NCBI GenBank assembly: GCA_050084515.1 | Contig: CM114271.1 | Coordinates: forward strand, 9,920,001-9,984,000 | DNA length: 64,000 nucleotides | Direction: 5' to 3' | Source: Blasia pusilla | Taxonomy: Eukaryota | Part shown: positions 6,117 through 47,469 of the stretch, in pieces | Layout: every line of letters begins with the position of its first letter | How positions within the stretch are numbered: the first letter of the stretch is position 1 | Made by a program: the position numbers and the translations under genes | The notes under the pieces: model-generated | The model's database searches: none | Told to the model about the DNA's origin: nothing | What the model saw: the letters and a program-made list of their open reading frames with translations, nothing else

Positions 6117-9100
6117 CGGAGAATGCAACATCAAATACAAAAATGTAATTTGAAAATGCCAAACTGATCACTTTGATTTTGACCTTTCTTCAATATTCTT
6201 TGGACACTCTTTTCAAGACCTTGAAAAAATGAATTGTTCCACATTTGTACTTCCAATGAAAATTTTAATTTTATAATTATGTATTGAGTGCTAATTGGAT
6301 ACAAGACTATTTTATGGTGCAACCTTTTAGATTCATAAAGGGTAGCAAATACCAAAACCAATACCCAAAAAAAGTACATGAAGGAAGTAATTGGGAAAAG
6401 AGACAAATGTAAAATGTGAAAAAATTCTTCCCTCATGAACCTTGGATGATTTTTTCAAATCACATAAATTACTTCCTTTCAAGGGATATTTTGAATCGAT
6501 GATTGTTCCCTCTTCTTTCTCCTATCGCACCTCCCGATATGTATTATTAAAGTATTAATTATGAAAAGAGGATGGGATTAGAAAAACACTTGACATGTAA
6601 TATTTTTCGGGTGACTTAACAAGTGGTTGTGCAAAAATTTCCTTTCCTCCTTGGGGTCTGTGCCAATCTTCTCCTAGAATAGGCATCGGTTAACATGATA
6701 CAATAAGTGCATAAACTAGTGCGCCCAAACGCCCCTCATGCTCTAAGTAGCAAGAAACGGATTGCAACAAGATTATCCATGGTCTCCACAGATTCCTAAC
6801 AAATCTTTTGTTCCATTGCATCCAAACTGAGGAAAAGAGGACATCCAAAAATTTCTATGTAGGCACATAGCAGATTGAAATAAGATCATCCGACATACAT
6901 TCTATTGAAATAATATCATCCGACTTATGCAACTTACCTATTAGAAGGGCCCCTGTTCGTTCTACCCTTGCTTCCTTCCTACTACATGTAGCACAGTAAA
7001 GAGAAATTATTTGTGTTTGTAGCACAAAAGTAGAGTGTCAATGTATGCAAATATATGCAACCTCAAACGTAATGGTCATCGAGATTCGGAAAAAATTTCC
7101 AAGTACATCGAATTGGAGGAGCAGGGCGTGTTTCGGAATTGCACAACATGTTTCTTTCAATCTGCACTTAACACCATTAGATACACACGTTCTTCACTAA
7201 GCACAAAGGATTTCTTCACAAGTTAATTCAAAACCACTTTTAAGAACTTAGGTGTAAATGGTCACCAACCAAATGATTGGGAAAGAATTCTGAACTCAAC
7301 AGAACAGGAATAGATCCTATTCTTGATGAGTGTGTAGCGTGTCGGGTAACAATCTACATAAGAGTTGAATGTTAGTTACCACTAGGACGTGTGGCTAGGG
7401 TTCAACTCTCTTTCCTTTAAGGCTAGACAATTTTTGGAGTTTCCAAACAAACTGAGAGCCAGTACATACTCTCTCCAGCACAAATGAGTAGAAATTGTTC
7501 ACACTGGTATCCGCTTTCACAATAAAAGCTGGAGAAGTATATCTTCACGACCATATGGTGTTCACGCACTTACTTTATAGACTTTCTGTTCGAAACCGTC
7601 ATGTTGCTCCAATTTGCCACCATTCAGGCCTTGAGGCACCTCCTCTACGTCTGTGTGCTCTAGTGAAACCTGTCAAAGCAAAAAGAAATTACTGAAATTG
7701 AGGGTCTACACACTTGTCATTGAATAACAAGGCCATGTGCTCTGTCAGTATGACGGCAAGTAACTCTAAAATACCCCATCAGTATTTGGGAACATTTTGG
7801 GCTTACGCAAAGATGATCAAGAAAGTATGATCCCCAGAGTGAGACTCTCCTGAGTAGAGTGAACATCAAATAGGTCCACCGCCTTATGCAAGGAAAGAAT
7901 ATTTAAGTCTGGCCCTCTTCAGGGATATCCAACGAACCAAATTCCAAAACAAAAGGGAAATGTGGGCTGTCATCATTTGAGCACCCACCCCCAAATATGT
8001 ATGCTTAAATTAAAAAACGTGAATTGTAATTGTAATCACTACCTGAGCATGTACCTCCATAGGAATTCAACAAAAGTATGGAGAGGTAAGTTTCATGTAA
8101 GTAGGTAAGCTTTGTGGTTCATGTTCCAACCCACTTCTAATGTCATCAAGTTATGAAAACTAGTCTATAAAGAGTGGCATATCCAGCAATATATCTATAC
8201 GACTCAATTAATCTTCAATACTTATCATTTCTCTTTTCATTCATGATCTTATTACTGCCCGATTCTAGATGAAGGAAAGACAACCTACCGATTGAGCGAT
8301 TGCACATGTCTTCATTAACAATGCCAGTAGGACTGGAGAGCCTAGCACCTTTTTCTCCTGACCAACTTGAGTTAGTGCTAAGGAGAGGAACAGCCACAGC
8401 TACACTCTGCATCTCTTGAATTGACCACCTGCCACAATTTAGACATATTTTCAAAGACTGAGACGCGGATGGCTTCACTAACTTTGCTATTATTTTGATC
8501 ACATGACATTCAGATCCTATTCGGAAATGGTTTCTTCAAATATATACTTTCTTCTCTAACTGGCAAACATTAGAATTCTGACATCTAATTTCCTGATGAC
8601 AACCAACCTTGATATTTGACGACAGCCAAATGTGCATAGAGCTTTCTTGAGGTAATCTCCTCAAAGTGAACTTAATACCTTCCACCATCTATGTGGTTTA
8701 TCCCAACTCACCATCCTAGATTACTACTGTTAGAAAAGGGAATCCTGGTCACTTATGGCTGATTTTTGAAAATCAAAGATCAAGCCCTGGCAGATTGACA
8801 TGAAAGCCAAATGTTGTCTGAGCTCTAAAAGCTGGGCCTATTGGTCCCACTGGACAAGCCTTCAGGACCACGTCAACACCTTGGTGAGGGCATTCACATA
8901 TATGTTATACAAAATTTTGTAGAATTCCCAGGACCAGTAAAGGTTTCATGAAGAATGAGCATCAGTTCATCTTGGTGGTTGCCCTGTCCATACACCAGAA
9001 GAATACAGTCTCATGTTAGGCCTGAACATAACAAACTGATGGTGAGACCTGACAATGCTCCTTGCCTTTTATGAAGAGTAACTATCAAACATGGGCTCAA

Positions 9101-9398
9101 CATCATTTTTTATCGATGGCAATAGGTGCAGCTTTAGAAATGAGAGGTGGCCAAGTGTATAGCTCCTATGTGACACCTAAAACGGCCCCACCTGGAGGTT
9201 TACTCGTCAAAACTGTTCACATAAGATTAATGCAAATGAAGCTGAAGAGAACCATCACTCAAACATGTGAATTTTCATGGCAGGTTGAGTCAACTGATGA
9301 CGAAAAGAAAGTAGATGTTTTAACAGACCTTTCAGTCACACAGATTGTTGTCAGAAATTTCATTGAATAGAAGACAATGTGACCTCACAAGTAGAACT

Positions 9399-12300
9399 TT
9401 AGTTCATAAACCCCCGGCATCTGTCACACATACAGAAAGCTCATTTGGTAGACCACAATTTGAATGACTTCTGAAAACCTTAATAATAACCATCTACAAT
9501 AAACTATCAACAGTAGTAAACAATCAAAGAATGCTACTGCAGTAGAATACTTGACACAGCTTTGCATTGACCATGAGGGGTATTCTCTTCTCTTCAAGCA
9601 GGTAGGACATTCCTAAGAAAAATTGGAAGTGATGGTACATTTAATCTTGGGCATTCATCAAATACAAAGAAAACAGAATTCTTGAAGTACGTCCAACCTT
9701 GAAGATCCACAGCAGCAGGGTATTTTCTTCTCCTCAAGAGGGAACTTATAATCATATGTAAGCTCTTCTCCGGCATGTATGTGACGCTTTGAATATATCA
9801 CCACCTTCTTCTGTCCTTCGATTGTAATGATTTTTGTATAACAATTTGGCTGCATGACAGCAAACATGACAACCAACTCAATGAGGTATATCCAGAATGA
9901 ATAAAGTTTCTTGCTTGAACACCTGACATGTATTCAAGGAATAGGTACCGAATCTTTACATCACAAGAGTGGTTGATAAATCTTGCAAGCCCACCACGTC
10001 TGGTAGCATCAACCTGCAGCAGAAATACTATCAACACTCCATCAAACTCTCAAAGGAAACTGATATTCAATTGATAATGGAACAGTTAAAATTGACAAAA
10101 ACAAAAATTGACATACTTGGTCGTATTCACCCTACATTCTAGACGTCCACCCTTGCACCAAATGACATCTTTGACAAGAACAAATTAGTTCAGACTATCC
10201 CATAAAGAAGTTAGTTACATACCACATATTCATCATCAATACGAAAGAGATAACTGCTCCCTATGCCCATTGACTCATATTGCTGCTCCCGAATATCAGA
10301 TATCTGTGCCACTTACAAACATTCAGTCTTCACATCTAAGAAAACACCCAAATCCCTAATGCCAAAAGAGACCAATAGAAGGATGCTACTTTCTCCATGG
10401 TCGCTCACAAAAGTAGCTCCATATGTGCCTTGTCTTGAAATCTGATTGCCTAAAATTTCTACTATAGCTCTAGTTAGCCCCCAGAATATGAATTGTCTGC
10501 TTGGATCCAAAACAAGATGTTTAAACTGAGGTAAGATACACTACATGGAAAGAGCAAGCATTTACAGTAAGGCAGTTCGGTAAAAACCTTCGGTCGTATA
10601 AGCTCGCCCACATATTCTATGATGAAGTCATCAGCATCAATAGGGTCCAGTGCAATCAAACCCCATTCGTGAATTTTACTACGTCCAAATTTCAATCTCT
10701 TCTTTCTAGCCTGCAAAAAATTGTGTGAGCCACAACATCACCACAGATAATTCTTTCAAAACGAGAGCTGATTTGAAACCAATGGGAGTCTCTAGACACG
10801 GTTATTATTCTAGGGAAGAAGATACAGTTAGAACTACAATGAGACCTAATAAGTGCTGCAACCAGTATATCCATCTCATGGGCAAAGACCTAATTTAGTA
10901 GGGAATGTACAGGACCTCTTCAGGAACTTCTTCAGTGTGGATAGTGAAAGCTAGATTAATGACACTGAGCATTAGGACCCATCAGCAGGATTGCTACGAC
11001 CAAAATCTCTTAGGTCAACTTTCGAAATCTAATTCATTTAGCAGACACCAATCAAAACCCTAATCACGCAATTACAGTCTTATCATGAATCTTATTAAAA
11101 TCTTAGTAAGAACTGACCTTGAGTTGACTTAGTTTCAGAACATCAGAACCCTCCACAGCAGCCGCAAGCTTTCGGAGTGCTACTCGATTAGTTCGCGCTG
11201 AATGAGGACTACAGAACGGTAACTTAGCTATAGTGCGCCTTTCTGAAGTTTGCCTTTGGGACCCAACAACTGCTCGGGATCGACCCACCATACGCTGTCC
11301 ACTAACTCCGGGAACTGTCTCAGTAGTTTGTTTCTGGGATCGTGCAGCTGCTCGTACTCGGATGCCATCCTCAAGACGTACTTTCCGCATCCAGTTTCGC
11401 CAAGCCCACCCCTCAGTGGAACATCTTGCACATCCTTTAAACACAGGAGAAATAAAAGTCTGCTGATCATTGGGGATGCTAGAGGGACAGTCTTTCAAAT
11501 CAGCAAGGGAGGAGTTATTTGACTGAGGATATGTAGAAAGATTGACAACGGCTTCCATCAACTGAGGACAATCAATTACTTCTTGATTACTCTGCAAAAG
11601 AGCAATTCTGTCCTTCAACTCAGGATAGCCAAAAACCTGCTGTTTAATTGTCAGGCTGGGAACACTGTCTTGTGAACTCATTTCAGACCATGCTTGCTCA
11701 AGCCCTGCAGTTTCAGGTAGAGAGATTGATGGGTCTTCTGATGAACCAGTTCCTACAAACTGTCGATGGAATCTACCCCGAGAATTCAGCTTATTGCTTC
11801 GATGGTCAGGAAAGACCCTAGGAAGTACTGGATCAAAAACTCCACTAAGTGGTCCTCCTTTAGATGCCTGAAGAGTCTGATCAACTTCAGAACCTGTAAT
11901 GTACGTGACAGAGCAAATTCAGAGTAGTCATGAACAATGTTTGAGCGATAGCACTAACTGAGCCACTCCAGACAGAACATGACTCTTAGGTCTTCTCCAT
12001 GATGCATTCAGTATTAAATAAAGATCTGCTTTTGAGGATCAGAAGCTCCTGAAGAGTTAATCCTCTCACTCCCATTTGTGATCACCAACTCTCTTAAAAG
12101 AAAATTATTCATTGCAAGTAAAACTTGGAAACTGTCAGCATTAAAGTGTTTCAATACCTTTCCTTCTCTTGAAAACTGTGATATGACCATCTGCAGTCTT
12201 CTTATTAGATACTTTAGCAGTTTCAGATATCGATATTCCAGTTTTTGTGGAGGAAGTCCCTGAATTCTTTCCATTCGGTATCTCTAGACTGGCTCTGAAA

Positions 12301-19346: not shown

Positions 19347-21012
19347 TTTGCCTTCTTTTAAGACCTGAAAAAGGAACCTAAAATGCTCACAAAACCTAAA
19401 CCAAAAAATTCCAATTGACCGATTCTCCTGCGCTCAACCACCGCGGTTCAGAACTACCACGCGGTTGAAATTCTAAATCCAAGCTTTCGGCCACCTGAGC
19501 GCAAAAATCGTAAACGGCAACAGATTCAAAAAGCACTTTAATTTGGCCTTCACCGTTTGGTGACAATCGACACCACGAACCAGGGGACAGAGGAGGCATG
19601 GGGAGACCGACAGGAACTGTCATTATGCTTTACATTGCACTTTCCCCAGATTCCTAAACCCGCTCCAATCCTCACTCAATTACTACTCCCTTCAACTTTC
19701 CCTTCACCATCGCTGCGCGCGCAAACGTCTCAGTTATCGTCAAGCCCACAGAAACCACCGACGCCAATTCCTCTACCTTGAAGCACTTTCCTCAAACGTC
19801 TTTCCTCTCATCCTCTACTTCACAGTGGCATCAAACAAACGCACAGCAGAGATCGGGCCACAATTCCAGCAACGAACTCACTTACCCGCCCGTAGTTTCT
19901 GTACTAGGCAGGCAGAAAAAGGGACGCGAGCCCGCTCCTCACCACTCAACGATGACATGGAAAATTCATAAACAAATTATTCAGGTTTTGATCAGCATAC
20001 GATTCAAAAAACTACTTCGCCAACTCTAGTAATTCAATCTTTAGAGAGCAACCAGTAACAGCGAGAGCTAGGGCTAGCGTACGACGACCTCATCGTCTAC
20101 CATAACATGACGCACTCCCTCCCAGCAGCCTCCGAGCCCTAAGCTTCGCTCACCTACAGCTTTCGCGGCCCGGCAGGTGCACACATAAGACAGTCAGCGA
20201 GAGAGGCATCGGAAGGCAGTGACCGTAGAGTGTAGTGTAACGTAACCTAACATAACGTGCACTAGGAAGTGGGCACCACCAAGGTGCGTGTGGACTTCGG
20301 ACGGGTTCTTAGGACCGGCCGCAACAGGGTCGCAGCGACCTTCGTATAGCCCTTAGTTATTTTCTTCTGCCGGTTCCCGCTAGATATAGCAAAGTCGCAC
20401 ATATTTGTGCAAATATGTGCTATATCCATCCGAATACCCTTGTGGGTCCCATGAATCTTATCCGTGTAACGAGATCCGGAACCATGGGTTTGGGTTTTGG
20501 CAACGACCTCATGACTTCGGCCGCATTGGACCGGGTCCTTATTCGTTCGTTAGGCGTCACACTTAGGAAGATGTAATTTTTTAACCATTTGACCGTAAAA
20601 TAAGGACGACTTCCATTTATGTGATATGAAGTTTACTTTTGTGATTTTCAAGGCGGGTGAGTAAATATACACGCACAGTGGTCGTGGACGTCAGGCCAAA
20701 AGAGGTGAGTGTCCACCTTCGACAGCACCCCGCACCCACGGAGGGAATTTGGCCAAAAAAACTACCAATTCTGACGTTCGACCCTACAGTACGTTTCTAA
20801 TATGCCCTACTAGGGCCATACCTCACTTTCCGTAACGTTTTGTACGTCCAAATCCCATTTGGAATGGGGGATGCTGTTGGTAGTGGAGGCATACCCCTCT
20901 ATGTCATGTGGTAAGGAAAACGCCCCACAAGTCGCTCTTGCACGAATTGCCTTATTGTTGTTCCGCTTGACCAAACTACCCTGTTCTCCTCGTCTGGTTC
21001 GCTTGTTAAGCT

Positions 21013-21232
21013 TGTCACGTCTATTAGGATAGATCGACGAGATCTAGTAGAGGGCCTTCGGAGATACTGGAGGACAGCCTCAAGAGGTCGAGGATGACAT
21101 GATGATGCTGCCGTAACCTGAGAGAGCATGTTTCCCCTTCGTTTCGGCTCATTTGGAGCCATATTGAGGATCTTATTATTTTGGGTAAATTACCATTTAT
21201 GATATAGTTTACTTTCCACTTTGGGAAGTGGT
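21013..21232 (+). repeat. Older 'A' terminal repeat, left part; resumes at 32386-32523 after the nested element
   Basis: Starts TGTCACGTCTATTAGGATAGATCG, like 21233. Broken at AAGTGGT; the continuation TGGCCATTGACCCAC...AAGAGCCAAGGAGG starts at 32386. Confidence 0.8.
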
Positions 21233-23529
21233 TGTCACATCTTTTAGGATAGATCGATGAGATCTAGTAGAGCGCCTTCGTGAGTAGTGGAGGACATGCT
21301 CAGTAGGTCGAGGATGACCTGTTGAGGCCCCGAGAAACCAGAGAGAGCAGGTTTTCCCCTTCGTTTCGGCTCATTTGGAGCCATATTTAAGAACTTACTA
21401 TTTTAGGTAAGTACCATTTTGAATATATGTTCAACTTTCTATTTTTGGTAAGTGGCCCTTGACCTCCTACATCAGGTCAAGAGCCAAGGAGGTGACTTGG
21501 GAGCATAGGTTACCATGGAGAGAGTTTGGGAGAGGGGAGGGGTATACCTCAAGGAGAGAGAGCTTGAGAGCTCATTCTCTCTTTGTTGAACCTCTGGGCA
21601 TAAGGCGACGGAGCTATGGTCCCTTGCCTTGTGAATGTAACCCAAGGCTCTCATTAGGAGAGTGGGTTTGGTTTGACATGAGAGAGAGTGCACACCTTTG
21701 AGAGCTATGGTGTGAGATGGTGTAGAGAGAGATTGGATCTTACTTTACAAAGAGAGAATGAGAGAGTGAGAGAGCTTCATGGGGAAGCTCGCTGGTCACT
21801 CATTGTTTTTGCAGGTTGGGGACCGTGTTCCCTGTTCAACGGCTCATGGGAGTGCTCACCAGAGCAAGGGTTGCTTTGATTGTTCTTTGCATTTGCCGAT
21901 TTTTGGTGTGGAATAGTGGCACGGGAAGCGCTTCCCAATTTCTGATAGGGATTGATTATGGGGGCGGGTTGCCCCATGTCGGCGCTCTTGGGGGCACCAT
22001 GTAGCTTGCTGATTTTTATTTTTATAGGTTTTATATTTTTGTTGGGAGAAATCGGCGAGGAAGCACTGCCAAATTTGTGTAGGAGAAAAAGATATTGGAC
22101 TTTACGGCAGTCCCTGTTAGTTTTTACTGGAATGTTCGATTCTAAATATTTTTTCGCATTATTGTAGATCGTAAGTTGTGCATGCTCTGCAACAAACAAT
22201 GCGCAATTTGGAGTTGTGAGCAAAAAGTTATGGTCAATCTTGCAAAACTCCCATTGCTAGGCGATTTTTAGGGTTAAATTGTTCAAACCCTAAACCAGCC
22301 GCCACGCCGATGGCGGCCGTCACTGTAATAGTCGCCGTCAATGGTCAACCGTCACCGTCATCGGTCGACCATCATCATCAATGGTCAATCGTCACCGTCA
22401 ATGGTCCACCGTCTGTTGTCCACCCTTTGGTTGCCATTGCCGCCATTACGGAGTGGAGGGTCTTCCACGACGTTCGTTGATTCTCTGACTTGCGTCGCCA
22501 CCACGTACTTTGTTTTGGCCTCCACCATCATCGTAGTTTCGTCATCAACCAGTGATGGTAGATGATCTCAGGTTATGGTGTTTGAGTTTTGATTTCATGC
22601 TGCTATGTTGTGATTGGTAGCCGTTCGACAACGATCAAGTATCGTGCCGTGACGCCCGTAGCCGCAACGTGCCGTCTGTTGCTGCGCCGTGCCGCTCGTG
22701 GCCACACCACATCGTCTTGATCATGGAACCACTCCTTCACTAAGGAGCAGAGCGTGTGAATTTCTAATTGAGGAGGGTATGCCGCCGAGTGCCGTGCTGT
22801 TTGTAGTCATTTCGTGCCCCTAGTGCCTCCTCAATGTGCGGTGTAGGTCGACCTACACCGCACATCGAGGAGGTTAAGCAGCATCACTACGAGAGGAGTA
22901 CGACTTGCTGATTGGAGGAGTTGTCTTCAGAACCGAGTTGGGGTCGAGATTTGCAGTTGTTGAGGAGCGACATCGACATGTGTTCAGGTTACCCATTATG
23001 GTCCTCTACCCTGCACGTGTGAGGGATTCTGGGATTTGAGTAGTTTATTTGGGGATATTGGGTTGTGTGGATGCTGAGATCATCATTCATGTATGTGGTT
23101 TAGGGGACATAGACATGTGTGGAATGTCCGGAGTTGAGGTTAGGTTGTCGATGAGATGATAGCCTGGTCGATTTGCTGCACCACGCCGTGTGTTGCCTCA
23201 CGTTACACGTCTCGGGGAGGAAGAGTGTAGATCGAGTGCCACATGTTTGGGATGAGTGATTGAGGGATTACTCACGAGGTTGAGAGTGATCAGGTGAGAG
23301 GGGCACGAGGGTCATCACGGCATCCATTCGGGACTTTGAGAGGCGAGGTGGTGCACCCGAGAGTAGCTCTAGAGGTTTTACACGGAGTGGCACGAGGTTG
23401 CGAGGGTCTCCACGTGAGGGATCCCCTCGACCTCCTTCTGTGTCATCGTAAGACAAGGGGGAGGGTGTAGAGGAGTTTGTGAGCACATCGCCACACATTG
23501 TGCGTGGTCCTACTAGTTGGGCGTACGAG

Positions 23530-24432
23530 ATGGACAACCAGGGTGGAGGACCGCGTAGGTTTTTAGGTGCAGTAGGCACGATTGAGTTGCACGATTTCAT
23601 GGCAGAGTTTAGGAGTTGATGCGACTCCCAACAGGCTAGGAACTCTAGAGAGTTCAACCCGTTTACAGCACGGAATGGTATGTTCCAGCATTTAGAGGGG
23701 GCGCCCATGGACGATTACCATGAGTTCTCCCACAGATATGCCCAAGAGATTGAGGCATGGCGACTCTACTATGACCCACACTATGTGTCATGGACAGAGT
23801 TGTTCCCAAATGAGGAGGAGGAGTCAGGAGAGGCTACTTCCTCTTCCACTAGTGATGTTTTATGAGGGGTCACTCGCAATGGAGTAGTTGCACCATCTAG
23901 TCGGGTTTGTCCCAAGTTCAACCCCATGGTTGAGTTCTTCGCTGAGTTGAGAGCCAGCTACCAAGGGGTACGGACGGTGAAGTTGCGGAGCATCCACGAC
24001 TTCCAGAGGCGCCCGGGTAAGAGTTTACGTGAGGCTTACACTTGCTTGCGTCGGTTGATCAACGTCACTCAAGGATGACGGAGGCTCAGGCTATCCAATC
24101 ATGGTACGCGATGTTGGACCGGACCCTGCGGACATGGACTCCGAGATAGGTCAACTGTGGCACCACGAGTTAAGGGAGGATACTGGGAGGCCGTGCCACA
24201 GAGATCTGCGCCTTCATATGCGGCTCAGCAGCAGCCGCCTACTATTACTTGTTGGTCATGTGGTGGAGCTCATCATCAACGTGATTGCACTCGTCAGGGT
24301 CATGGACATGCGCCTCAGCAAGGAGGAGGAGATGGTGCTGCATCGGGAGGTTACCAGTGTGACTATTGTCAGAGGTATGGTCATACACGCGCCAAGTGTC
24401 TCAGTTTACATCCTGAGTTACGTCCGGACTAA
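23530..24432 (+). pseudogene. gag with two CCHC zinc knuckles
   Basis: CWSCGGAHHQRDC and CDYCQRYGHTRAKC in ORF 24157..24432; the upstream reading frame is broken by stops. Confidence 0.8.
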
Positions 24433-26070
24433 GGGCCAGAGAGGGCACCAGAGTGAGTAGTCAGTCCGAGTGGGCCTAGAGATCGTGCACCAGGTAGTCC
24501 CGTTGGGGGACGAGGAGCTGGAGTTGCCCGACATGGTGGTGGAGCTGCCCGTTGAGGAAGTAGAGTACCACCACCTAGACACGCCAAGGGAGACGTTGGA
24601 TGTGAGGCTAGGATGGCTGCTCAGATATAGCAGCTACAAGAGCAAATTACCGCTATGGCATTGAGGTTACCCAATGCCGGATCCGTGGCATCGACATCAT
24701 ATGGAGCAGCCAGAGATGTGGAGAATCTTGGTTGGATGTGCGGGGTTGCCAAGATGGAGGCCGCCGCAATTATGACGCGTGGATCAGCCATAGAGTTGGA
24801 TCCACAACGAGGGGAAGCCAGAAGCTTTCACGTTGTCTGAAGCGATGAGGACCCCATCGATGGGTCCTCATCAAAGTTCCTGGAGAGTTGGTGATGTTGT
24901 TGGTGTGCAGGCACAGAGGGCAATGGGAGAAGCAAGTGCGACGACTCCAATTGTTGATGCTCATGAGGGGCATGTGTCGAGCACATTGTTGGAGGCGGCC
25001 ACCGTTGTGTACCCCGCTCCTTTATTTTCTGCTTCCAATATTATGACGTTGGGGGATACGCCCGCCGAGGCTTTTCGGTTGGCCGCTTCACTATGTGAGC
25101 GCGGAGTTGGAGTTCCTGCATCACGTTTAGAGGTGATTGCAGAGGAGGTGATGGACTTGCCCTTGGAGCGGATGCTCGGGCCGTCCACGTCAAATTCATG
25201 GCAGGTTGTGGCTGCTAGGATGGCGGAGACGCCCGCTAGACCTGCGATAGAGCGTGCCATGGCTTCTCCTGGTGTTGTGTTGCTGGATAACCCAGGAGAG
25301 GTCTTCCAGTTGGTGAGTCCCGGAGGTAGAGCTTTTAGTCCACAGCGTGTCTGGTTGGATTCAAGAGCGCAACCCCTGATGTTGGGGAAAGCGTCATTCA
25401 GAGGATTGGGCTTGACGAGAGCTGATATGGAGCGTTGTCCATTCTAGATATAGACATCCTTGGATGGAGCGATTACCACACAGTATATCACCCGACATGA
25501 GGTCATGGTGAGGATTCGCCCGGGACATCCTACAGATGAGTCCGTGGTACGAGCCAAGGCGATAGTGATTGATGCACAGTCCTAAGACGTCTTGGTTGGT
25601 GGAGCAGTGTTATGCTCAATGGGGTTTTCCCTAGATTACTGGGAGAAGTCAGCATCCTACGGACCAGAATGGCAATCAGGTGATGGGCGCCTTAGCTCAT
25701 TACCCGTTTGATTCACAAGTGCAGTGATCGAGCGACGGCCAGTAGAGGTGGCGACCTTAGCAGCATTTAGCAGTGCCATCACTTGGCCTAGTGATTTGAT
25801 TGAGGGACATGTCCATGCAGAGGATACTCCCGTTCCTGACATTTCTATGGAGAGGAGTGTTATGGTAGTCGCATCATTCCGTGGAGGAGAGGTGCCATTG
25901 TGGGGCTCAATTGAGGAGCTTCGACGATTGGCAGATGAGCACCTACAGACCGCGTGGAGCGAGGCATTTGCACCGAAGCGTGATGGGTCTGAGGAACCCA
26001 AGGTAGCACGGAGTGCTACAATGATACCCTTGGATATCATACCCATTGTGTGGTGTATCTCGGAGGAAGG

Positions 26071-27010
26071 TATTCGAGTGTTAGATCTGCTTGGAGGGAT
26101 TAGCACCGGGTTAGCTGTTGTTTTGCAGGCAAGAGTGTGAGTGCAACAATACCTGTATGTGGAGAGTGATGATGTTGCGAGGCGTGTCTCACTACCACAT
26201 GTGGCGCAATTACGCCTACGTTTTCCCGACTTATTGTCTACATGTGCGGTGCAGGGGTACCAGAGTTCCCTACCGAGGGATATTTTGTTGTTGGGGGCGC
26301 AAGACTTAGAGCGGATAGGGACCATTGATTTGGTCATTGCCGGTTGGCCATGTTAGGGCCAATTGAGTGTTGGACGAGGCAACGGGTTGGATGACACTCC
26401 ATCCAGGTTTTTTTGGGAGATGTTGAGGGTCTTACGGCAGTTGCAAAAGCACGTGTCTCGTTCTCTAGCCTACATTCTGGAGAATGTGCCAATCTTAGGA
26501 CGACTCCAAGTCACGGATGGTGACGAGTGCTCATCAAGTGCGTGCATGGATTGGCCCAACAGTGTTCTTGGATGCGGCGAGTGTAGGTTCTAGAGCCCAT
26601 CGCCCCCGTCTATGGTGGACCAACTTGGTGCCCCATGCGGTGTTACGGAGGGCGTTTGCGAGAGTGGAGCACCCCTCCCATTTGTTAATGGATTCCATTC
26701 TGGATCCAGGTCGTTGATCATAGGCAGTGAGGCACGATGATCGACCACCATTGATTGTGGTCAACAGGGTAGGCAGGCCGCGGGCAGCCTTGCCCACGGT
26801 TGTGAGTTTTCCCGCTTCCTATGCATACAAGAAGGCCGATCCTCGCTTGGTTTGGGATGACTAGGTTCAGCATTTGGTGGAGCCCATCGCCGATGAGAGA
26901 GAGCGAGCGATGGGATTTCCCACATGAGTGACGGCAGTACCGTCAGTGTTTGAGGATCACGACGCCACATCTTGGGTCAAGCGATGGACCTGAACTGCTT
27001 GACATGGATC
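26071..27010 (+). pseudogene. DNMT3-like C5 cytosine DNA methyltransferase domain inside pol
   Basis: Motifs in canonical order: I IRVLDLLGGISTG; IV IDLVIAGWPC*G (PCQG with CAG>TAG); VI YILENVP; VIII DAASVGSRAHRPRLWWTNL; IX ERERAMGFP; X ILGQAMDLN. Confidence 0.92.
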
Positions 27011-30000
27011 CTCATCTTGGGAGTGGCTGAGCAACGCCGTATGAGATCGCAACAGGTCACAACGATTGCGTTGGTGAGCCCCATGCCTACCAAGACGGTG
27101 GAGGCAATGGTTGGGGGCGAGACCCGAGGAGATCTACACACCATGGGAGATCAGGAGAGACGCCCTTGGACTTCTTGGGATGTTTTGCAGGTACGCCAGG
27201 AGATGATAGCCACATCATCGGGAGTAGTTCCAAGCACTGCACGTGGAGGAGATCAGAGTTTGCGGTTGGCTGCAAGAGAGCGGCAAGATGTTGTTGTTTG
27301 AGACGGGGTTGCACCATAGCAACCACCGATACCCGCGTCGGAGAGTCCTATTGTAGTCATGATGAAGACTTGGGAGCCAGATACAGGCCCTAAGTTGACA
27401 GGAGGAGAGCGGCGCCAGATATATAAGTTCCTCAGGAGTTATAGGAGTTGCTTTGCGTTTAGCATGGAGGATTTGGGTACGCTAAAGGGACCGAGGATCC
27501 GCATTGAGTTGTCGAGTGATACGCCAATCTTCCGACGACCCTATAGGTACATTGATATGGAGAGGACTCTGATTCAGAGTAGGAGCCAAGACTTGGTCAG
27601 AGCAGGATTAGTGGAGATGTCGTATGGGGAGTATGCATCTGCCACTGTCATGCTCGCCAAGAAGGATGTGCATGGCAACTGGACGGATAGGTGGATGTGT
27701 GGGCATTACCGACTTATCAATTGGTAGACAAAGTCCGATAGGTATGCCATGCCCATCCTTGAGGAGATCTTTGATACGATTGGTCACGCAAAGATCTTCA
27801 GTTCATTGGATTTGCGAGCCGGATGCCATCAACTGCCTATCAGATTGGAAGAGAGGCAGAAGACGGCATTTTGGGGCATCAATCCTCACAGGAAGGATTT
27901 TTTGTACCAATGGTGGTTCTTACCATTTGGATTAAAGAACGCCTCGACGCAGTTTTAGAGGGTCATGGATAGGATCTTGGTTGGTTTGGATTTTGTTAGG
28001 TGTTATATTGATGACATCATAGTCTTTAGCGCCATGGTTGAGGAGCATGAGGAACATCAAGAGGAGGTATTTCGACGATTGCAATTACATGGGCTGAATC
28101 TACATCTAGGCAAGTGCAAGTTCTTTTACGACCAGATTGAGTACTTGGGTCATACGATATACCCAGGGGGCCTTGGTGTTCAGCAAACGAAGGTACAGGC
28201 TATCTTAAGCATTCCACGCCCTGTAGATGTGAGCCGTATTCAAGCATTCATGGGATTGGCAAACTTCTATCGGCAGTACGTTAAAGGATTCATTTTGATT
28301 GCAAAGCCGCTAACCTTTCTAACCAAGGTGGATCACGAGTGGCACTGGGAGGATGAGCAAGAGCGAGCATTTTAGTTGCTGAAGGAAAAGTTGACGTCCG
28401 CACCCATCTTGAGGAGACCGATTAGGGGGCATCCTTTCCAATTGCACATAGATTGGAGCATGTTGGGGCTTGGAGCGGTGCTCACCCAGCATGATGATGA
28501 GGGTAGAGATTTTGTGGTGGCTTACGCTAACCGCTCGAATAACACTGCACAGGCAAAGTACATCTCGTATGAGGGTGAGTGCTTGGTTGCAGTATGGGCT
28601 GTCGCGCATTTCAGGTGTTACTTATTCGGCAATCCCTTTACCATCATCACTGATCATCAACCATTGAAGTGGTTGATGGAGTTCGACAAGCATACACGGA
28701 AGCTTCCGATATGGGCTCTGTTGTTGCAGGAGTATGATTTTCACGTGGTACATAGACCTGTGACTCAACCAGGATGTAGATGGGTTGAGTGGTAACCCGT
28801 GCCCGAGTCAGCGAGATGCGACTAGAGCTCGATGGCATGGAGAGAGTGATGAGGAGTCAGTGCCAAGATGGCACGCGTTAGCCTATTTAGGCATGTTGGC
28901 TATGGAGAGCCAGAGTGTGGAGACTTCGATGGCGAGGTCTAGTGGAGAGTCCTTGAATCCCAAGGCCAATGAGGAGACGACAAGTGGCCGAGATATTCAT
29001 GATGATGGAGTAGTCTTGGAGTACCTTCGTACTGGCACTGTTGCAAGCACGGTGGGTGCTAGAGAGCGAGATCAGATCCTACAACGGGCCAGAAGATTTC
29101 GTTGGGAGGGGACACATGTTTTGAGGGTTTGGGAGGATGGTAGAGTATGCGTAGTGCCGCATCCTTCGCAGAGAGCACGACTAGTGCAGCATGCCCACGA
29201 GGAGTTGGGTCCCTTTGGGGTGAAGCAGACGTACAACTTGCTTCATATTGAGTTTTGGTGGCGAGGCATGCAGACTAACGTTCAACAGTTTGTTGCCAGG
29301 TGCATGGTGTGTGATCGGGTCCGAGCATCATTCAATGCTCCGACTCCACAGTTGCATCCATTATCAATCATGGGCTTAGGGTATAGATGGAGTTTGGATT
29401 TTGCAGGACCTTTGCCTTTGACGGAGCGTCACAGTCATTATGTGTTGGTGATGGTCGAGCACTTCTCTAGTGGATCGAGTTGGTTGCATTGCCTGACAAA
29501 GCGAGTGAGGGAGTAGCTTATGCCTTCCTTGACAGAGTGCTGAGTCATTATGGCACACCGGCTGAGGTGTTGATAAACTAGGGTATCGATTTTCGCGATG
29601 AGTTCCAGGCCTTGTGTGATCAGGCGCTAATCGACCACCGCACCACTTCGCGAGATCATCTCGAGGCGGATGGATTAGCGGAGAGAGTTGTGCAGACGGT
29701 GAAGAGGGGTTTACGTAAGTATGGCTTGCAGAGAGGTCACCTAGGAGATTGGGACCTCCAATTGCCGTGGTTGGCGATGGGATACATATGCAGCAAGCAG
29801 GCATCCTTAATGTCTTTTTCACTGTACTTACTACTTTATGGCCGAGAGCCAGATTTACCTGCAGCCATTCGTCGAGATACTGGTGAGGTGCTAGACCTCG
29901 ATGACCCAGATGTATGGATACGAGCATATTCTCAGAGGGCTGAGTTGTTTTGGAGAGTGATGCCTATGGCATTCGAGAACTTGGCGATTGCGTAACATCG

Positions 30001-30289
30001 GGATACGTTGAGGTATGCAACTATTCGGGGAGGTGATTATCGACCTACTATCCGGAGGTTTCATCAGGGAGACTATGTTTACTTGCAGTAAATGGCACCC
30101 ACAACGTTGGATGTGACTTCTGGACACACCATCTTGAGAGTGCGTGAGGTTTTGCCATGCCGTGTTCTCTTATAAGAGGGACGCGATGGTATGGTTTGGA
30201 AGGACCATGTGCGTAACTGCGCGCTATATCGTCTTCCGAACATTGACGGTACAGTTGATCCGAGCTTAGCAATAGTTCTTGTAGGCTTA

Positions 30290-30430
30290 CGGTGTATGTT
30301 GTGTGGTTCCGCCCGTGGTGCAACCACTATGCTAGTATGTGATGGGTTTTCGAGAGGATGGCATATGGCATGTTTGATGCCACATCTCACTAGGGTTCCT
30401 CAGAGACGATGGATGTGTCCCATATGTACA
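30290..30430 (+). other. PHD finger at the integrase C-terminus
   Basis: CMLC...MLVCDGFSRGWHMACL...VPQRRWMCPIC: a C4HC3 pattern with one Cys replaced by Phe. Confidence 0.88.
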
Positions 30431-31064
30431 TAGAGTAGGTAGTTCTACATTCTCACTTGTGTCTGTGACATGGATGACAAGAAGGCGACTAACGATGGGG
30501 CCACATGAGCACCCGGCCTTCTTGCTCTTAGCGTCCGAGAGATGTATGTCATGGTAGGTAGGGATAGATGGCTATCTCGAGTTAGAGGGACCTAACCACC
30601 AGCTAGGGGGGCGATTGGAGATATTTTGGTACTTCTTGTCTCGTTGTTTGGATGCCATGAGTTACCATGGGATCGTGCGTATTTGTGTGTGTGTTCGGTG
30701 ACAGCGATGTATGTTGTGTAGCGATGTGTATGCGCATGACAACTGTCATGTCTTTTAGTATAGATCGGTGAGATCTAGTAGAGCGCCTTCGTGACTAGTG
30801 GAGGACATGCTCAGTAGGTCGAGGATGACCTGTTGAGGCCCCAGGAAACCTGAGAGAGCAGGTTTTCCCCTTCGTTTCGGCTCATTTGGAGCCATATTGA
30901 AGAACTTACTATTTTAGGTAATTTCCATTTTGAATATATGTTCAAATTTCTATTTTTGGTAAGTGGCCCTTGACCTCCTACATCAGGTCAAGAGCGAAGG
31001 AGGTGACTTGGGAGCATAGGTTACCATGAGAGAGTTTGGGAGAGGGGAGGGGTATACCTCAAGG

Positions 31065-32068
31065 TGTCGCGCCCCTACTCTCCTTGAATTTCAATCTTTA
31101 GTGTTGCGGAAGCGTACGTTTAGTAGGTCACGATCTCATCGCCGATCTCCACCCAAACACACACTCTCGTTAGTCGGGTCTGGGCCAACCAGCGTTCCAA
31201 CCCACCGAGTTCTCAACTCGGCGTCTCATCAAGCTCAACCTCCCTAAATTCCTAGTTTCCAAAACATGGCAAGTCCTTCAAGACTTGGAACAAACTTCCT
31301 GATTAGTCCAGGAACCTAAAATGGCACTTGCGCGCCTAGCGATCCCAACTGTTCAACGGAACTTGTGCGAGTTCCAAACTGAGACCCAATTAATTGAGTC
31401 GCAGGGTGAAATCCAAGAGTGATGTCTAAAATCGCCTCCGTAGACTGGGTTCAGGTTTCCAACCCAACCCCAAACTCTCGATCCGTTCCATGCCCTTGAG
31501 CCGCCCCATGGCGCCCAAAGTGGGGTTCGAGTTCCAAGCACTCTCGGAGACCTTCCCCCTTACTAGTACTTCTGGGGTTCTCCAATAACCCCCCCGCCCT
31601 TTGGAAAAGGAGGGTTGGGCCCTTCATTGTGGCCCTCAACCCGACTCTACTTACAGTCGTTTCCGGGTTGTTTCTCAGCCATTGCTTATGCGTTTGCAAA
31701 GATCTTTAGTGCGTTTGAACCATCTTTCCATAAGTCTTCCAACGCACCCTTGTTCAATCAAAACGCATCTTAGTGCTAAAAGTTATGGCCATAAATACAG
31801 TCAGAAACTCTCAAACGCTAGTGGCGTTCCAAATGCGGATTCTTCCTTTGGCAACCCACTTCCTAGACTCAACTCCTTGCAAGTCTTGTTCCGCGTTTGG
31901 TCTCAGTTTTTCAGTTGCAACCATAACATCTGAAATACGAAGCCTCGCTTGCGTCTCGTCTCTTGTCTCTTCTTCGAGACCACTCCAACACGCAAACCAT
32001 CTTAGCGTGAGCCCGCTAATATTCCGATGTTCCGCTTTGGCACTCGTTTGGTCATGAGGGTCGGGACA
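31065..32068 (-). mobile_element. Chromovirus solo LTR inserted in repeat A2
   Basis: Reverse complement of 2343-3340. Perfect 5-bp TSD CAAGG at 31060-31064 and 32069-32073. Confidence 0.95.
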
Positions 32069-32561
32069 CAAGGAGAGAGAGCTTGAGAGCTCATTCTCTC
32101 TTTGTTGAACCTCTTGGCATAAGGCGAAGGAGCTATGGTCCCTTGCCTTATGAGTGTAACCCAAGGCTCTCATTAGGAGAGTGGGTTTGGTTTGACATGA
32201 GAGAGAGAGTGCACACCTTTGAGAGCTATGGTGTGAGATTGTGTATAGAGAGATTGGATCTTACTTTATTGGAGATATTTTGGTACTTCTTGTCTTGTTG
32301 TTTGGATGCCATGAGATCGTGCGTGTTTGTGTGTGTGTTCATTGACAACGATGTATGTTGTGTAGCGATGTGTATGCGCACGGCATGGCCATTGACCCAC
32401 TACAGTAGGTAAAGAGCCAAGGAGGTGATCTGTAAGCATAGATTACCGTGGAGAGGGCTTGGGAGAGGGAAGGGGGTATACCTCCAAGAGAGAGAGCTTG
32501 AGAGTTCATTCTCTCTTTGTAAATCCATCAAATATCTCCATCAACAAGCTCTCCATAGTGT

Positions 32562-32595
<34 letters not shown>

Positions 32596-32597
<2 letters not shown>

Positions 32598-33020
32598 GTC
32601 AACCCAAACCCACTCTCCTAATGAGAGGCTTGGGTTACACATTCAAGGCAAGGAGGACCATGACTCCGCCGCCTCATGCCAAGAGGTTCAACAAAGAGAG
32701 AATGAGCTCTCAAGTTCTCTCTTGGAGGTATAATCCCTTCCCTCTCCCAAGCCCTCCCCATAGTAACCTGTGGTCACAGGTCACTTCCTTTGGTCTTGAC
32801 CTGTTGTAGCGGGTCAAGGGCCACTTCCCAAAGTATAAGTCAACTATACCAAAAATAGTAACTTGCCCAAATTAGTAAGTTTCTCAATATGACTCCAAAT
32901 GATCCGAAACGAAGGGAAAACCTGTTCTCTCATGTCATCTGTGGCTTTAGCAGGTCATCCTTGACCTCTTGAGGCTGTCCTCCAATATCTTTAAAGGTGC
33001 TTTACTAGATCTCGTCAATC
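32596..33020 (-). repeat. Inverted copy of the 'A' terminal repeat
   Basis: Reverse complement matches about 21248-21680; preceded by a (CT)n run. Confidence 0.85.
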
Positions 33021-33044
33021 TACTAGGATAGATCGACAAGATGC

Positions 33045-33225
33045 CACCGCCGCTGCTAGCAATTGTCGTCGACGCCGCCGCTATTGTTCAAGGTTGCGTT
33101 TAGTCACCGCTGCTAGCAATTGTCGTCGTCGCCGCCGCCGCTATTGTTCAAGGTTTCGTTTAGTCACCGCCGCTAGCAATTGTCGTCGTCGCCGCCGCCG
33201 TTGTTGTTAAAGGATGCATTTAGCC
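33045..33225. repeat. Three tandem ~59-bp GC-rich units
   Basis: CACCGCYGCTAGCAATTGTCGTCGTCGCCGCCGCCGCTATTGTTCAAGGTTKCGTTTAGT repeated with variation. Confidence 0.85.
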
Positions 33226-33376: not shown

Positions 33377-34386
33377 TGTCGCGCCCCTACTCTCCTTGAA
33401 CGTCAATCTTTAGTGTTGCGGAAGCGTACGTTTAGTAGGTCACGATGTCATCGCCGATCTGCACCCAAACACGCACTCTTGTTTGTCAGGTCTGGGCCAA
33501 CCAGCGTTCCAACCCACTGAGTTCTCAACTCGGCGTCTCATCAAGATCAACCTCCCTTAATTCCTAGTTTCCAAAACATGGCAAGTCCTTCAAGACTTGG
33601 AACAAACTTCCTGATTAGTCTAGGAACCTAAAACGGCACTTGCGCGCCTAGCGATCCCAAGTGTTCAATGGACCTCGTGGGAGTTCCAAACTGAGACCCA
33701 AGTAGTTGAGTCACGGGGTGAAATCCAAGAGGGATGTCTAAAATCGCCTCCGTAGACTTGGTTCAGGTTTTCCAACCCAACCCCAAACTCTCGATCCGTT
33801 CCATGCCCTTGAGCCGCCCCATGGCGCCCAAAGTGGGGTTCGAGTTCCAAGCACTCTTGGAGACCTTCCCCCTTACTAGTACTTCTGGGGTTCTCCAATA
33901 ACACCCCCCCCCCCCTCTTTGGAAAAGGAGGGTCGGGCCCTTCATTGTGGCCCTCAACCCGACTCTACTTACAATCATTTCCGGGTTGTTTCTCAACCGC
34001 TGCTTATGCGTTTGCAGAAATCTTTAGTGCGTTTGAACTATCTTTCCATAAGCCTTCCAACGCAACCTTGTTTAGTCCAAACGCATCTTGGTGCTAAAAG
34101 TTATGGCCACAAATACAGTCGGAACCTCTCAAACGCTAGTGGCGTTCCAAATCCGGATTCTTCCTTTGGCAACCCACTTTCCAGACTCAACTCCTTTAAA
34201 GTCTTATTTTGCGTTTGGTCCAGGTTTCTCGGTCGTGACCATAACATCTGAAACGTGAAGCCTCGCTCGCGTCTCGTCTCTTGTCTCTTCTTCGAGACCA
34301 CTCCAACGCGCAAACCATCTTAGCGTGAGCCTGCTAATGTTCCGATGTTCCGCTTTGGCACTCGTTTGGTCATGAGGGTCGCCACA
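33377..34386 (-). mobile_element. Chromovirus solo LTR
   Basis: Reverse complement of 2343-3340. Perfect 5-bp TSD CCCCA at 33372-33376 and 34387-34391. Confidence 0.95.
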
Positions 34387-34909
34387 CCCCAACTCTGACA
34401 AGATGACCTTTTAATTCATGGAGTCCCAATTCCTTTGCCACTTTGCTATGTCTTTAGATTGGAGCCGCTTGACGACGATCGAGTATCATGCCATGACGCT
34501 CGTAGCCGCAACGCGCCGTCAATTCGGCCGTCGATTGCCGCGCCGTGCCGCTCATGGCCGCTCCGCACAATATGGATCACGGAGTGGCACCATCATTGGG
34601 GAGCACAATGTGTGTTGCTATTGAAGAGGGTATGCCATTGAGTATCGCATCCCATTCCCGCGTACTGGGCTATTTATTCGGTGTCGCCAGTGGCGCACCG
34701 TACCATTGTTGTATCGTATATCGAGGAGATTTGAGCATCATTAGTACGAGAGGAGTAGGACTTGCTAATTGGAGGAGTTTGTCTTCACAACCAAGTTGGG
34801 ATCGAGGTTTGCAGTTGTTGAGGAGCGACATCGACATTGTTGTGAGGTTACCCATTTGGTCTTTTAACCCGCACGTGTGAGGGAATTCCCGGTATTGAGC
34901 AATTATGTG

Positions 34910-35630
34910 TAAGGTTGCACATGGACATAGTCCGTGTTTGGGGACATGTCCATGTCCGTGGACTTATGTTTGTCATATGGACTGACATGTTCATGCGAGC
35001 TCGAGTACCGAGGGCCACAACCCAAGCCCTCCGGAAGCCCGCACTTGTTGCGTGGGCTGCAGCCCTAGGCGAGCTTGGTGCGGGCTCAAACCCGCAAAAT
35101 TTAATTCAAAAGATCATCTTTTGGTCAAGTGGACCAATTTTGTCCGGCGGACCAAATTTTTTGTCGCCCTCTAGCCCACACCCAATCAGCCCTGCTTGCC
35201 CCATGCCGCACTTGCCCGCCCGGAGCCCGCACCTGCCCGCCGAGAGCTCGTGCCTACTGCCTAGAGCTGGCGCCGGCCTGCCCAGAGCCCGCACCTACAG
35301 CTCCTTGCCCTAGCCCATGCCCAATCAGCCTTGAGCCCGCGCATGCATGTTCGCCTGGAGCCCGCGCCTGCTTTCTCGAAGCCGAGACTGGCCCGCCCTA
35401 GCTCGCGCATGCCCACCCTAGCTCGAGACAGCCCACCTTGAGCCTGCACTTGTCGGCACGCCCAATCAACTTGGAGCCTGCATCTGCCCGCATTGAGCCC
35501 GCCCTACGGGCCACGCAACATGTGCGGGCTCCGTGAGCCCGGGTCTAGGTGGCAAGCTCCGAGGTGGCCTTGGGTGCGGGCTCATCATGTCTGTCCCATG
35601 GACAGACTTGTCCGTTTCTGTACAAACTTG
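34910..35630. mobile_element. Non-autonomous TIR element (MITE, hAT-like), GC-rich
   Basis: Interrupts the Gypsy leader. Ends TAAGGTTGCACA / TGTACAAACTTG. Degenerate 8-bp TSD ATTATGTG / GTTATTTG. Internal GCCCGC-rich motifs. Confidence 0.7.
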
Positions 35631-36279
35631 GTTATTTGGGATATTGGGCTTCATGCATACGTTGAGAGCATCATGGATATATGGGCTTAGGGGACATAGA
35701 CCTATGTTGGATATCCAGAGTTCATGGTATATTCTATCGATGAGATGATATGACAGTAGTCGATTTTCCGCACCACGCTGCTTTTGGCACACACTACACA
35801 TCTTAATGAGAGGGAGTGTACATTGATTGCTGGGGGGCTGGTATTCTGGCAGGAGAGAGTAAGAGAGGAGAGGAAGAGAGGAGAGTCTCTCTTCAAAAAA
35901 AGGGCCAAATCCGCCTCCTCTCTTCAAAACTTTTTGACATATTTGAAATTTTTGTTTGCTTTCAAATTCATGAAATCTTTAGAAGAGAGTAGGTAGTGGT
36001 CCACATTCGGGCCTAAAGAAACCTCCTTTTTCCAGGGGGCAAAAAAAAAGTAGACATCATAAGACCACTACAAACATTTTTCCATCACTGTCCATGTGAG
36101 CCAAAGTTTCTTCACATTACCTATCTCGGTCTACAATAAGCAGTGCCCATGGGTAGTTTTGTTGGAGGACCACCCGAATGCGCATCGGTACGATGCCAAC
36201 CTCTCTTTTTGCAAGGATTTTTTCCTGCATCATGGCCTTCCCTGAATTGCCTCATAACCAACTTTCCTGACATCCGAAA

Positions 36280-46688: not shown

Positions 46689-47306
46689 GGATGCAAAATA
46701 AGGTTTTAGATTGTACTTTTATTTTTCCTGAACCTTCACTTTGAGCTTGAACTCTATTCAGCCCGGGGCAAATGATAGATTTTTTCCAGACCTTGGATGG
46801 AAAAAGTGATTGGTTCCACACTTATGATTCCATTGATTTTTCAGTTTTCTAAATTTTGTGCAATTTGCAACTCGTCGGACTCAGAGGGGTTGCCAAAATA
46901 TGGAAGAGGAAAAAAAAAATTATGGGACTGCTCAATAACTGAACAAAAAAGTGCAAAAAAATTCACACAAAAAGTTTCCTCTCTTCAACCCAACGGAAAC
47001 TCTCTTCAAAAAAAAATATCTATTTCGATTGAATGTAGTTTCCTCTCTCCTCTCTCCTCTCTTCCTCTCCTCTTACCGCACCTCTTGATTTCCGCATGTG
47101 TTTAGCTTGAGTGATTGAGGGATTACTCGCGAGATTGAGAGTGATCGTATGAGAGGGGCACGAGGGTCATCACGGCATCCTTTCAGGAATCTGAGAGGCA
47201 AGGTGGTGGAACTAAGAGGAGCTCTAGAGGATATACGCGGAGTGGTGTGAGGTTTCAAGAGTCTCCATGTGAGGGACTGCCTCAACCTCCTTCTATGTCG
47301 TCTTCA

Positions 47307-47469
<163 letters not shown>

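Follow-up and report, generated by a model that had tools for sequence, protein, structure and literature searches.

Split terminal repeats and a self-complementary primer-binding site in a degenerate Ty3/Gypsy element of Blasia pusilla

The DNA analysed here, 64,000 nucleotides of Blasia pusilla (GenBank assembly GCA_050084515.1, contig CM114271.1, positions 9,920,001 to 9,984,000 of the forward strand; hereafter the window), contains a Ty3/Gypsy retrotransposon whose terminal repeats are split and permuted. Instead of one long terminal repeat (LTR) at each end, the element carries repeat A alone at its 5′ end and a succession of B, A and B at its 3′ end, and its degenerate pol region retains the remains of a DDE integrase. 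We consider it probable that this is a dead member of a Ty3/Gypsy lineage with the layout A-PBS-genes-PPT-B-NN-A-B, where PBS is a primer-binding site, PPT a polypurine tract and NN a 2-nt spacer, and that in this lineage the cDNA ends are joined and the integrase then cuts at an internal palindrome. The wider proposal, that a DDE Gypsy lineage of bryophytes and related green plants replicates obligatorily via end-joined cDNA opened at a built-in palindrome, is put forward tentatively, with its chances somewhat short of even.

Repeat architecture, primer site and coding content

The features of the element and of its immediate surroundings are as follows (positions in the window).

21233-32385, plus strand: whole A1...B1-A2-B2 unit (repeat search, self-BLAST)
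21229-21232: left copy of the target-site duplication, TGGT (the flanks are contiguous A positions with a 3-4 nt overlap)
21233-21747, plus strand: A1, the sole 5′-end repeat, 515 nt, first bases TGTCACA
21543-21546, plus strand: TATA, within GGTATACC, 28 nt 5′ of the proposed transcript start
21571-21586, plus strand: A site (positions 339-354, CTCATTCTCTCTTTGT) complementary to the PBS; proposed transcript 5′ end and self-primer
21747-21762, plus strand: putative self-primer binding site, 16 nt, its first base being the last base of A1
21748-30613, plus strand: internal region (leader, conserved upstream open reading frame (ORF) remnants and pol, with many stops and frame breaks)
24358-26032, plus strand: conserved upstream ORF remnant, 32-37% identical to a 545-aa ORF of relative L040
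27329-30430, plus strand: degenerate pol with reverse transcriptase (RT), RNase H, integrase H2C2 zinc finger, DDE core and C-terminal PHD finger
30605-30613, plus strand: polypurine-type tract AGGGGGGCG, immediately before B1
30614-30741, plus strand: B1, 128 nt, last bases CATGACA (repeat search, self-BLAST)
30735-30750: palindromic junction of B end, 2-nt spacer AC (30742-30743) and A start; proposed internal integrase site
30744-31064, plus strand: A2, left part (A positions 1-322; self-BLAST)
31065-32068, plus strand: solo LTR of an unrelated family, 1004 bp, TGTCGCG...GGGACA, with the 5-bp duplication CAAGG; a later insertion, not part of the element
32069-32268, plus strand: A2, right part (A positions 318-515), its end fused directly to B2
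32268-32385, plus strand: B2, last bases CACGGCA, the right integration terminus
32386-32389: right copy of the target-site duplication, TGGC
21013-21231, plus strand: older A copy, left part (A positions 1-223), first bases TGTCAC, with no B upstream
32386-32520, plus strand: older A copy, right part (A positions 221-354; self-BLAST)
32521-33039, minus strand: older full A copy (A 18-456 by BLAST, the end region recognised by eye)

The original prediction had read this unit as A1...B1-A2-B2, with a purine tract directly before B1, a palindromic B1/A2 junction, TG...CA termini, a near-perfect target-site duplication (TGGT/TGGC) and an older insertion from 21013 that starts at the same A boundary, and each of these observations held. 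Repeat search and self-BLAST recover the layout: A2 (30744-32268) is 95-96% identical to A1, and B2 is 88% identical to B1, with one 10-nt gap counted. The match of A2 to A1 ends, within 1 nt, at the point where the match of B2 to B1 begins. A2 itself is split by the 1004-bp solo LTR at 31065-32068, which the prediction had not recorded. The junction at 30735-30750, CATGACA-AC-TGTCATG, is an exact 7+2+7 palindrome and the sole zero-mismatch match in the window, where the search returned no further copies of B and no further palindromes of this kind.

What delimits the element is the older A copy into which it is inserted. The sequences to the left and right of the unit are adjoining positions of this one A copy, so that 21233-32385 is a single insertion, and this context strongly supports the imperfect TGGT/TGGC pair as its target duplication. 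Because the insertion lies inside the older copy, the integration termini must be TGTCACA, where A starts, and CACGGCA, where B ends. The PPT lies 130 nt upstream of the TG end and the PBS follows A, not B; neither adjoins the integrase termini. Two other ways of producing the arrangement were ruled out: a gene block nested into one LTR of an LTR-LTR tandem, since 21748 and 30613 are bordered by neither a duplication nor terminal repeats, and an inversion or a window onto a tandem array, whose predicted orders do not match A-I-B-A-B (reasoned from the self-BLAST map).

A putative primer site lies at the end of A1. The stretch 21747-21762 matches A positions 339-354 (21571-21586) exactly in reverse complement, and a complementarity of this length, 16 nt, was reached in none of 1000 shuffles. 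When the RNA from 21571 to 21765 is folded, the PBS and its partner pair as the closing helix (z = -5.5), and none of 200 shuffles folds equally well; the RNA of relative L053 folds like the window copy, with the same closing helix (z = -5.7, again 0 of 200 shuffles). Five relatives retain the complementarity in differing sequences, over 17 nt in L009, 15 in L053, 11 in both L069 and L071 and 10 in L040, lengths reached in 0 to 6 of 1000 shuffles, and in all five the PBS starts 0-3 nt past the end of A. The partner lies 29-36 nt 3′ of a TATA in L040, L053, L069 and L071, while the TATA box of L009 is mutated in A1 and intact (TATAAAG) in A2. This co-variation in six independent elements points to a self-primer of the Tf1 type. 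From the TATA distance, which is the sole basis for it, we infer that the partner site would be the start of the transcript. In a survey of plant Ty3/Gypsy elements, Tcn1 and TAR are likewise predicted to prime themselves (PMC6317226). With a PPT at the start of B and a PBS at the end of A, the repeat generated by reverse transcription should be B-NN-A, in the window B-AC-A. The integrated form would then be a circular permutation of the B-NN-A repeat, with the integrase termini lying at the internal B/A palindrome.

The coding content is that of a Gypsy element with a DDE integrase. Every long ORF of the window copy is broken, pol contains in-frame stops, and tblastn with proteins of the relatives, covering 27329-30430, places the pol frame breaks near 28760 and 29471. 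Pfam matches in the window ORFs follow the order RT, RNase H, H2C2 and PHD, all on the plus strand, and the nearest database proteins, which are from liverworts and 56-68% identical over the query, have the domains RT, RNase H, H2C2, rve and PHD. Pol (27329-30430) is 56-80% identical to relatives bearing Pfam rve, and 29471-29900 is 63-80% identical to relatives with PF00665. Since this segment aligns with rve-bearing relatives, the DDE core is counted as present by homology despite the Pfam miss; rve is directly present in the intact relative L074. Neither gag nor an aspartic protease has a Pfam match in the ORFs of the window or of the relatives; the upstream ORF remnant at 24358-26032, which belongs to no Pfam family, may be gag. 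Beyond the domains named, Pfam found no tyrosine recombinase and no further family of note in 115 stop-to-stop ORFs of the window (24 plus-strand ORFs of at least 70 aa, and 91 on both strands of at least 45 aa, out of 109 listed), and no recombinase family in the ORFs of the relatives. A chromodomain was likewise not found by Pfam in the window or in the relatives' ORFs, and the precomputed domains of 33 relatives list PHD instead.

L074 is a distant relative in which an intact 2182-aa ORF (4860-11405 of its locus) contains RT, RNase H, H2C2, rve and PHD. Its RNase H and integrase are about 670 aa apart, and part of the intervening stretch matches window positions 26036-26948, upstream of the window RT. 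Terminal repeats were not found within its locus.

Related loci, the A2/B2 joint and sequencing reads

Using an alignment of 13 relatives, 80 related loci were fetched from metagenome contigs, and self- and cross-comparison was run on the 57 that extend 700 nt or more beyond the pol match. Before counting, each of nine pairs whose flanks are identical was merged into a single locus. The 23 loci with less than 700 nt after pol were left unclassified, except for L006, L020, L024 and L029, in which the B end is visible, and the intact relatives L074, L005, L008 and L079, whose loci contain no detectable terminal repeats, were excluded from the layout counts. The arrangement PPT-B-NN-A-B follows pol directly in 17 independent loci, and 16-17 independent loci have a single B followed by unique flank. 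One locus (L059/L060) has B plus a truncated A, without B2, and the few that remain are truncated or show nothing detectable. In all nine independent loci that contain a 5′ A, this A stands alone. Ordinary paired LTRs (BA...BA or AB...AB), the pattern that the original prediction had set against a family trait, occur in none of the 80 loci, and the layout, with its 17 independent B-A-B loci, is a trait of the whole lineage.

Both ends and the full layout are present in six elements (the window copy, L009, L040, L053, L071 and L069/L077). The A...B form is complete in L001 and probably also in L067, whose single B is truncated. The 4-bp duplication proposed along with the layout recurs as well: it is perfect in L009 (AAGG), L040 (AATC), L069 (ATCA) and L001 (TACA), and has one mismatch in the window (TGGT/TGGC), L053 (GCAT/ACAT) and L071 (ATTA/ACTA). 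All B-A-B loci have a G-rich tract immediately before B1, a B that ends in CAYGACA or nearly so, an A that starts with TGTCATG or TATCATG, and between them a spacer of invariably 2 nt (AC, GC, AT or GT), while integrase identity among the related loci of this form is 46-82%. On these sequence comparisons, the lineage is a bryophyte-associated Ty3/Gypsy type whose standard integrated form is A-PBS-genes-PPT-B-NN-A-B. One further locus has a different arrangement, in which TG and an inverted part of A come after a B end (L028, 1805-1929); this may be another fold-back or nested product, comparable to the one described below.

How the end of A2 meets the start of B2 differs from copy to copy. The A end runs straight onto the B start in the window, L003, L017, L040 and L044/71, and in a second subfamily the B start is exact in seven of nine loci. 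In the subfamily closest to the window, to which L003, L017 and L040 also belong, about 3 nt are missing and one base is added (L009), 17 nt of filler are present (L013), or the first 9-10 nt of B are missing with six bases added (L018). In the second subfamily, 5 nt are missing with one base added (L053), or there is a large deletion at a CCTT microhomology (L069). Such indels or filler thus occur at A2/B2 in five of the 17 loci and at no other joint; in the same copies the PPT/B1 boundary is free of indels and B1-NN-A2 always retains its 2-nt spacer. In essence, A2/B2 behaves like the joined termini of cDNA, the pattern being that which end-joining of two DNA ends leaves.

Reads were taken from three RNA runs, together with contigs of one DNA run, under the same species label. 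The family stands at very high depth in the DNA-run contigs, and in the three RNA runs sense-strand RNA extends across 21000-31061, including B1 and the 5′ part of A2, with its coverage peak in the 3′ part of A. Most of these reads are 90-95% identical to the window and therefore derive from other copies. Reads that join the A end to the B start number only 5, 7 and 7 in the three runs and come from both strands. Two other joints were seen in the RNA. Sense reads skip 1071 nt within pol (27484 to 28556; 12, 19 and 8 reads), and others lead from the 3′ untranslated region to A position 309 (30556 to 21541; 4, 8 and 10 reads). The second was considered as an intron and rejected, its boundaries not being GT-AG; lacking intron-like boundaries and having a GGTA microhomology, it is read as a deletion variant. 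Both joints, neither of which has GT-AG ends, are probably expressed deletion derivatives.

Proposed replication cycle and rival explanations

A cycle consistent with these features can be outlined. Transcription would start in A1 about 30 nt past the TATA and proceed through the genes, B1, the spacer and A2, with most transcripts ending near the A2 end, such that the 3′ part of A would serve as the R region. To judge from the complementarity, the first 16 or so nucleotides of the RNA would fold back to pair with the site behind A1 and, as in Tf1, serve as primer for minus-strand DNA, and the position of the G-rich tract before B1 suggests that plus-strand DNA would be primed there. The resulting linear cDNA would have B-NN-A at each end, and its physical ends, the B start and the A end, would lack TG and CA. 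Joining of these ends, whether in a two-LTR circle, by end-joining after a first cut or by a template jump, would create A2/B2. The integrase would then make a staggered double-strand cut at one CAYGACA-NN-TGTCATG palindrome, and with a 2-nt spacer such a cut would yield two canonical CA-3′OH ends simultaneously. As a precedent, the integrase of foamy virus cuts two-LTR circles at their palindromic LTR-LTR junction, which yields processed linear DNA (PMC1180852). Insertion of the opened molecule with a 4-bp duplication, after a cut at the palindrome upstream of the PBS, would leave A...B-A-B. A...B copies could come from one-LTR circles or from later recombination between B1 and B2, and B2 might, speculatively, be the source of the sequence beyond the poly(A) site that A1 lacks. 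HIV-1 integrase, too, reportedly cleaves a palindrome of this type in vitro when it is presented on an oligonucleotide.

The original prediction had offered two alternatives, replication independent of tRNA or the opening of a two-LTR circle at an internal palindrome before its integration. This either/or did not survive, as the evidence fits both together: the exact self-complementary PBS that co-varies in six elements supports the former, and the permuted repeat and the A2/B2 joint support the latter, with circle and cleavage entering as presumed steps. Since the source organism has the family in abundance and transcribes it, the model lends itself to testing at the bench.

Several observations weigh against this cycle. 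A symmetrical cut of two-LTR circles should give A-B-A...B as often as A...B-A-B, yet the former was seen in no element, against six complete elements of the latter form, and in none of the nine loci with a 5′ A. Possible reasons for its absence are a directional mechanism, faster loss by recombination between the two A copies or an incomplete model, and the sample is small. Three decayed relatives (L022, L036 and L067) have only 8 nt of complementarity, which was reached in 190-237 of 1000 shuffles, and a scripted search did not find PBS complementarity in L001, also a decayed copy. Every complete element examined is degenerate, with no demonstrably active master copy, and in the window copy itself Pfam detects neither the rve core nor gag nor protease. 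Three of six A2/B2 junctions in one subfamily are identical (L003, L017 and L040), which would fit precise joining and would equally fit inheritance of the joint. In the RNA reads, neither a start of molecules at 21571 nor an end at 21747 stood out, although RNA-seq is poorly suited to mapping such ends; circles, ends of linear cDNA, transcript starts and poly(A) sites were likewise not observed.

Among the other explanations, the one with a real though minor chance of being correct dispenses with the circle. Here, the integrase would cut the palindrome in the left repeat of linear cDNA and insert both of the ends so made, after which host end-joining would close the gap from the A end to the B start within the chromosome; or else the RT would jump from the A end to the B start. 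The product would be identical, with the same heterogeneous A2/B2 joint and no need for a nuclear circle, and use of the palindrome at only one end could introduce a directional bias, which would fit the lack of A-B-A...B forms. Its cost would be a chromosome break that depends on repair, and the sequence does not distinguish this route from one through a circle. It is improbable that B2 and the A2/B2 joint were copied from readthrough RNA by some form of priming, so that the layout is inherited rather than rebuilt. RNA reads do cross from the A end to the B start (the 5, 7 and 7 noted above), and three related copies have a common joint; however, the crossing reads represent both strands in a family transcribed with a strong sense bias, and filler and indels are confined to A2/B2. 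Furthermore, a PBS placed right behind A and a PPT placed right before B leave the sequence 3′ of R out of reach of the standard strand transfers.

Two further explanations are very improbable. According to the first of these, the window copy arose from an ordinary Gypsy element, with an LTR of A plus B, by a single rearrangement in which the 5′ B and the PBS were deleted and the 3′ end underwent partial duplication or deletion. The age of the copy, its many mutations and its place in a nest of insertions would suit such an origin, but it is refuted by the recurrence of the layout in 17 independent related loci with exactly the same PPT/B and A/PBS breakpoints, and the minus-strand A at 32521-33039 also has an A end followed by PBS-like sequence, without B. 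The other would make it an element of the DIRS/Ngaro/PAT type that uses its split repeats in the known way, with the integrase as a relic. In favor of it, the order A1-B1-A2-B2 is diagnostic of PAT, Ngaro and VIPER among tyrosine-recombinase elements (PMC4157794). Against it stand the want of a recombinase in the 115 window ORFs and in the ORFs of the relatives, the conservation of the integrase zinc finger, core and PHD finger throughout the lineage, and the 4-bp duplications and TG...CA ends of seven elements, which are marks of DDE integration. Tyrosine-recombinase elements of the PAT, Ngaro and DIRS types are not known to make a target duplication.

Neighbouring repeats and comparison with known systems

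The older family copy that flanks the element is a fold-back, in which plus-strand A meets minus-strand A exactly at the complementarity between the PBS and A 339-354. In the minus-strand direction, a full A gives way, exactly at the PBS position, to an inverted A that descends from position 354 to position 1, and the arm at 21013 terminates precisely at A position 1. Such a structure would be the expected product of plus-strand strong-stop DNA snapping back on its own PBS-complementary site, and a replication fold-back at the 16-nt inverted repeat would yield an identical result. Between the inverted A copy and the next solo LTR are three tandem 60-nt CCG-rich units (33045-33224).

The family to which the solo LTR within A2 belongs (about 1 kb, TGTCGCG...ACA) has three copies in the window, at 31065-32068, 33377-34387 and, reversed, 2342-3346. 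The first two are solo LTRs with 5-bp duplications (CAAGG and CCCCA, respectively), and weaker relatives lie at 5527-5826 and 57913-58049. Adjoining the reversed copy is a 65-nt piece (3342-3404) that is 94-95% identical to A positions 390-454. Pieces of an older related internal region, separated by other insertions, occupy 34444-35830, 47099-49087 and 57009-57091; their identity to 22601-24887 and 29891-29973 is 71-81%. The terminal repeats of this older element were not found, with nothing similar to A or B near 57100-58500. An integrase-like stretch at 356-1236 belongs to a different Gypsy family, with 27-37% identity to the relatives used here.

With canonical plant Ty3/Gypsy elements, as covered in the REXdb survey (PMC6317226), the Blasia element has in common its pol order, TG...CA ends, 4-bp duplication and purine-rich plus-strand primer; canonical elements have paired LTRs, whereas its 5′ end has only part of the terminal unit. 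The survey has no PHD-bearing lineage, the term PHD occurring nowhere in its text (PMC6317226). We class the element as a structurally new form within Ty3/Gypsy. A DDE-integrase element with split direct repeats was undescribed in the literature searched, a scope outside which subscription journals and Repbase reports fell; the listed papers on split direct repeats concerned, by their titles and abstracts, recombinase elements or transposable elements in general. LTR retrotransposons are defined and found by their paired LTRs, the ends of which work in reverse transcription as well as in integration; in this element the two roles have separate places. Standard LTR finders would misannotate the lineage, calling A the LTR, leaving out B2 and missing the target duplication.

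The primer site has its closest parallel in Tf1/sushi and Tcn1, in which the PBS likewise stands right after the 5′ repeat and is complementary, rather than to a tRNA, to a site of that repeat where the transcript is expected to start (PMC6317226). All have a Gypsy-type pol with a DDE integrase, and the likeness drawn here is one of design. Tf1 and Tcn1 have paired LTRs and a chromodomain, in contrast to the split, permuted repeats and PHD-ended integrase found here.

Retroviral two-LTR circles contain the same kind of CA-NN-TG palindrome, made of both integrase ends, and cutting it gives both processed ends. In retroviruses the palindrome exists solely in the circle, and circles are mostly by-products, whereas in the Blasia element it is built into each repeat and transcribed. 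Because the physical ends of the proposed cDNA lack integrase sites, the element could not do without internal cutting. Circular or end-joined cDNA would, if the joined-end route is correct, be a productive intermediate for a DDE integrase and not a dead end, and the lineage would provide a natural case of the long-abandoned circle-junction route of retroviral integration.

Elements of the PAT, Ngaro, VIPER and TOC types have the same A1...B1-A2-B2 order, which implies end-joined cDNA, and the original prediction was right to name it as the known layout of Ngaro and PAT (PMC4157794). PAT- and Ngaro-type elements encode a tyrosine recombinase; the Blasia element has a DDE integrase, TG...CA ends and 4-bp duplications, and no recombinase was found in the ORFs searched. 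Should the proposed cycle hold, the common A...B-A-B repeats would make the lineage a structural bridge between LTR retrotransposons and the DIRS/Ngaro/PAT group, and the same layout would have arisen in integrase- and recombinase-bearing elements for one topological reason, which bears on the origin of DIRS-like elements from Gypsy-like ancestors.

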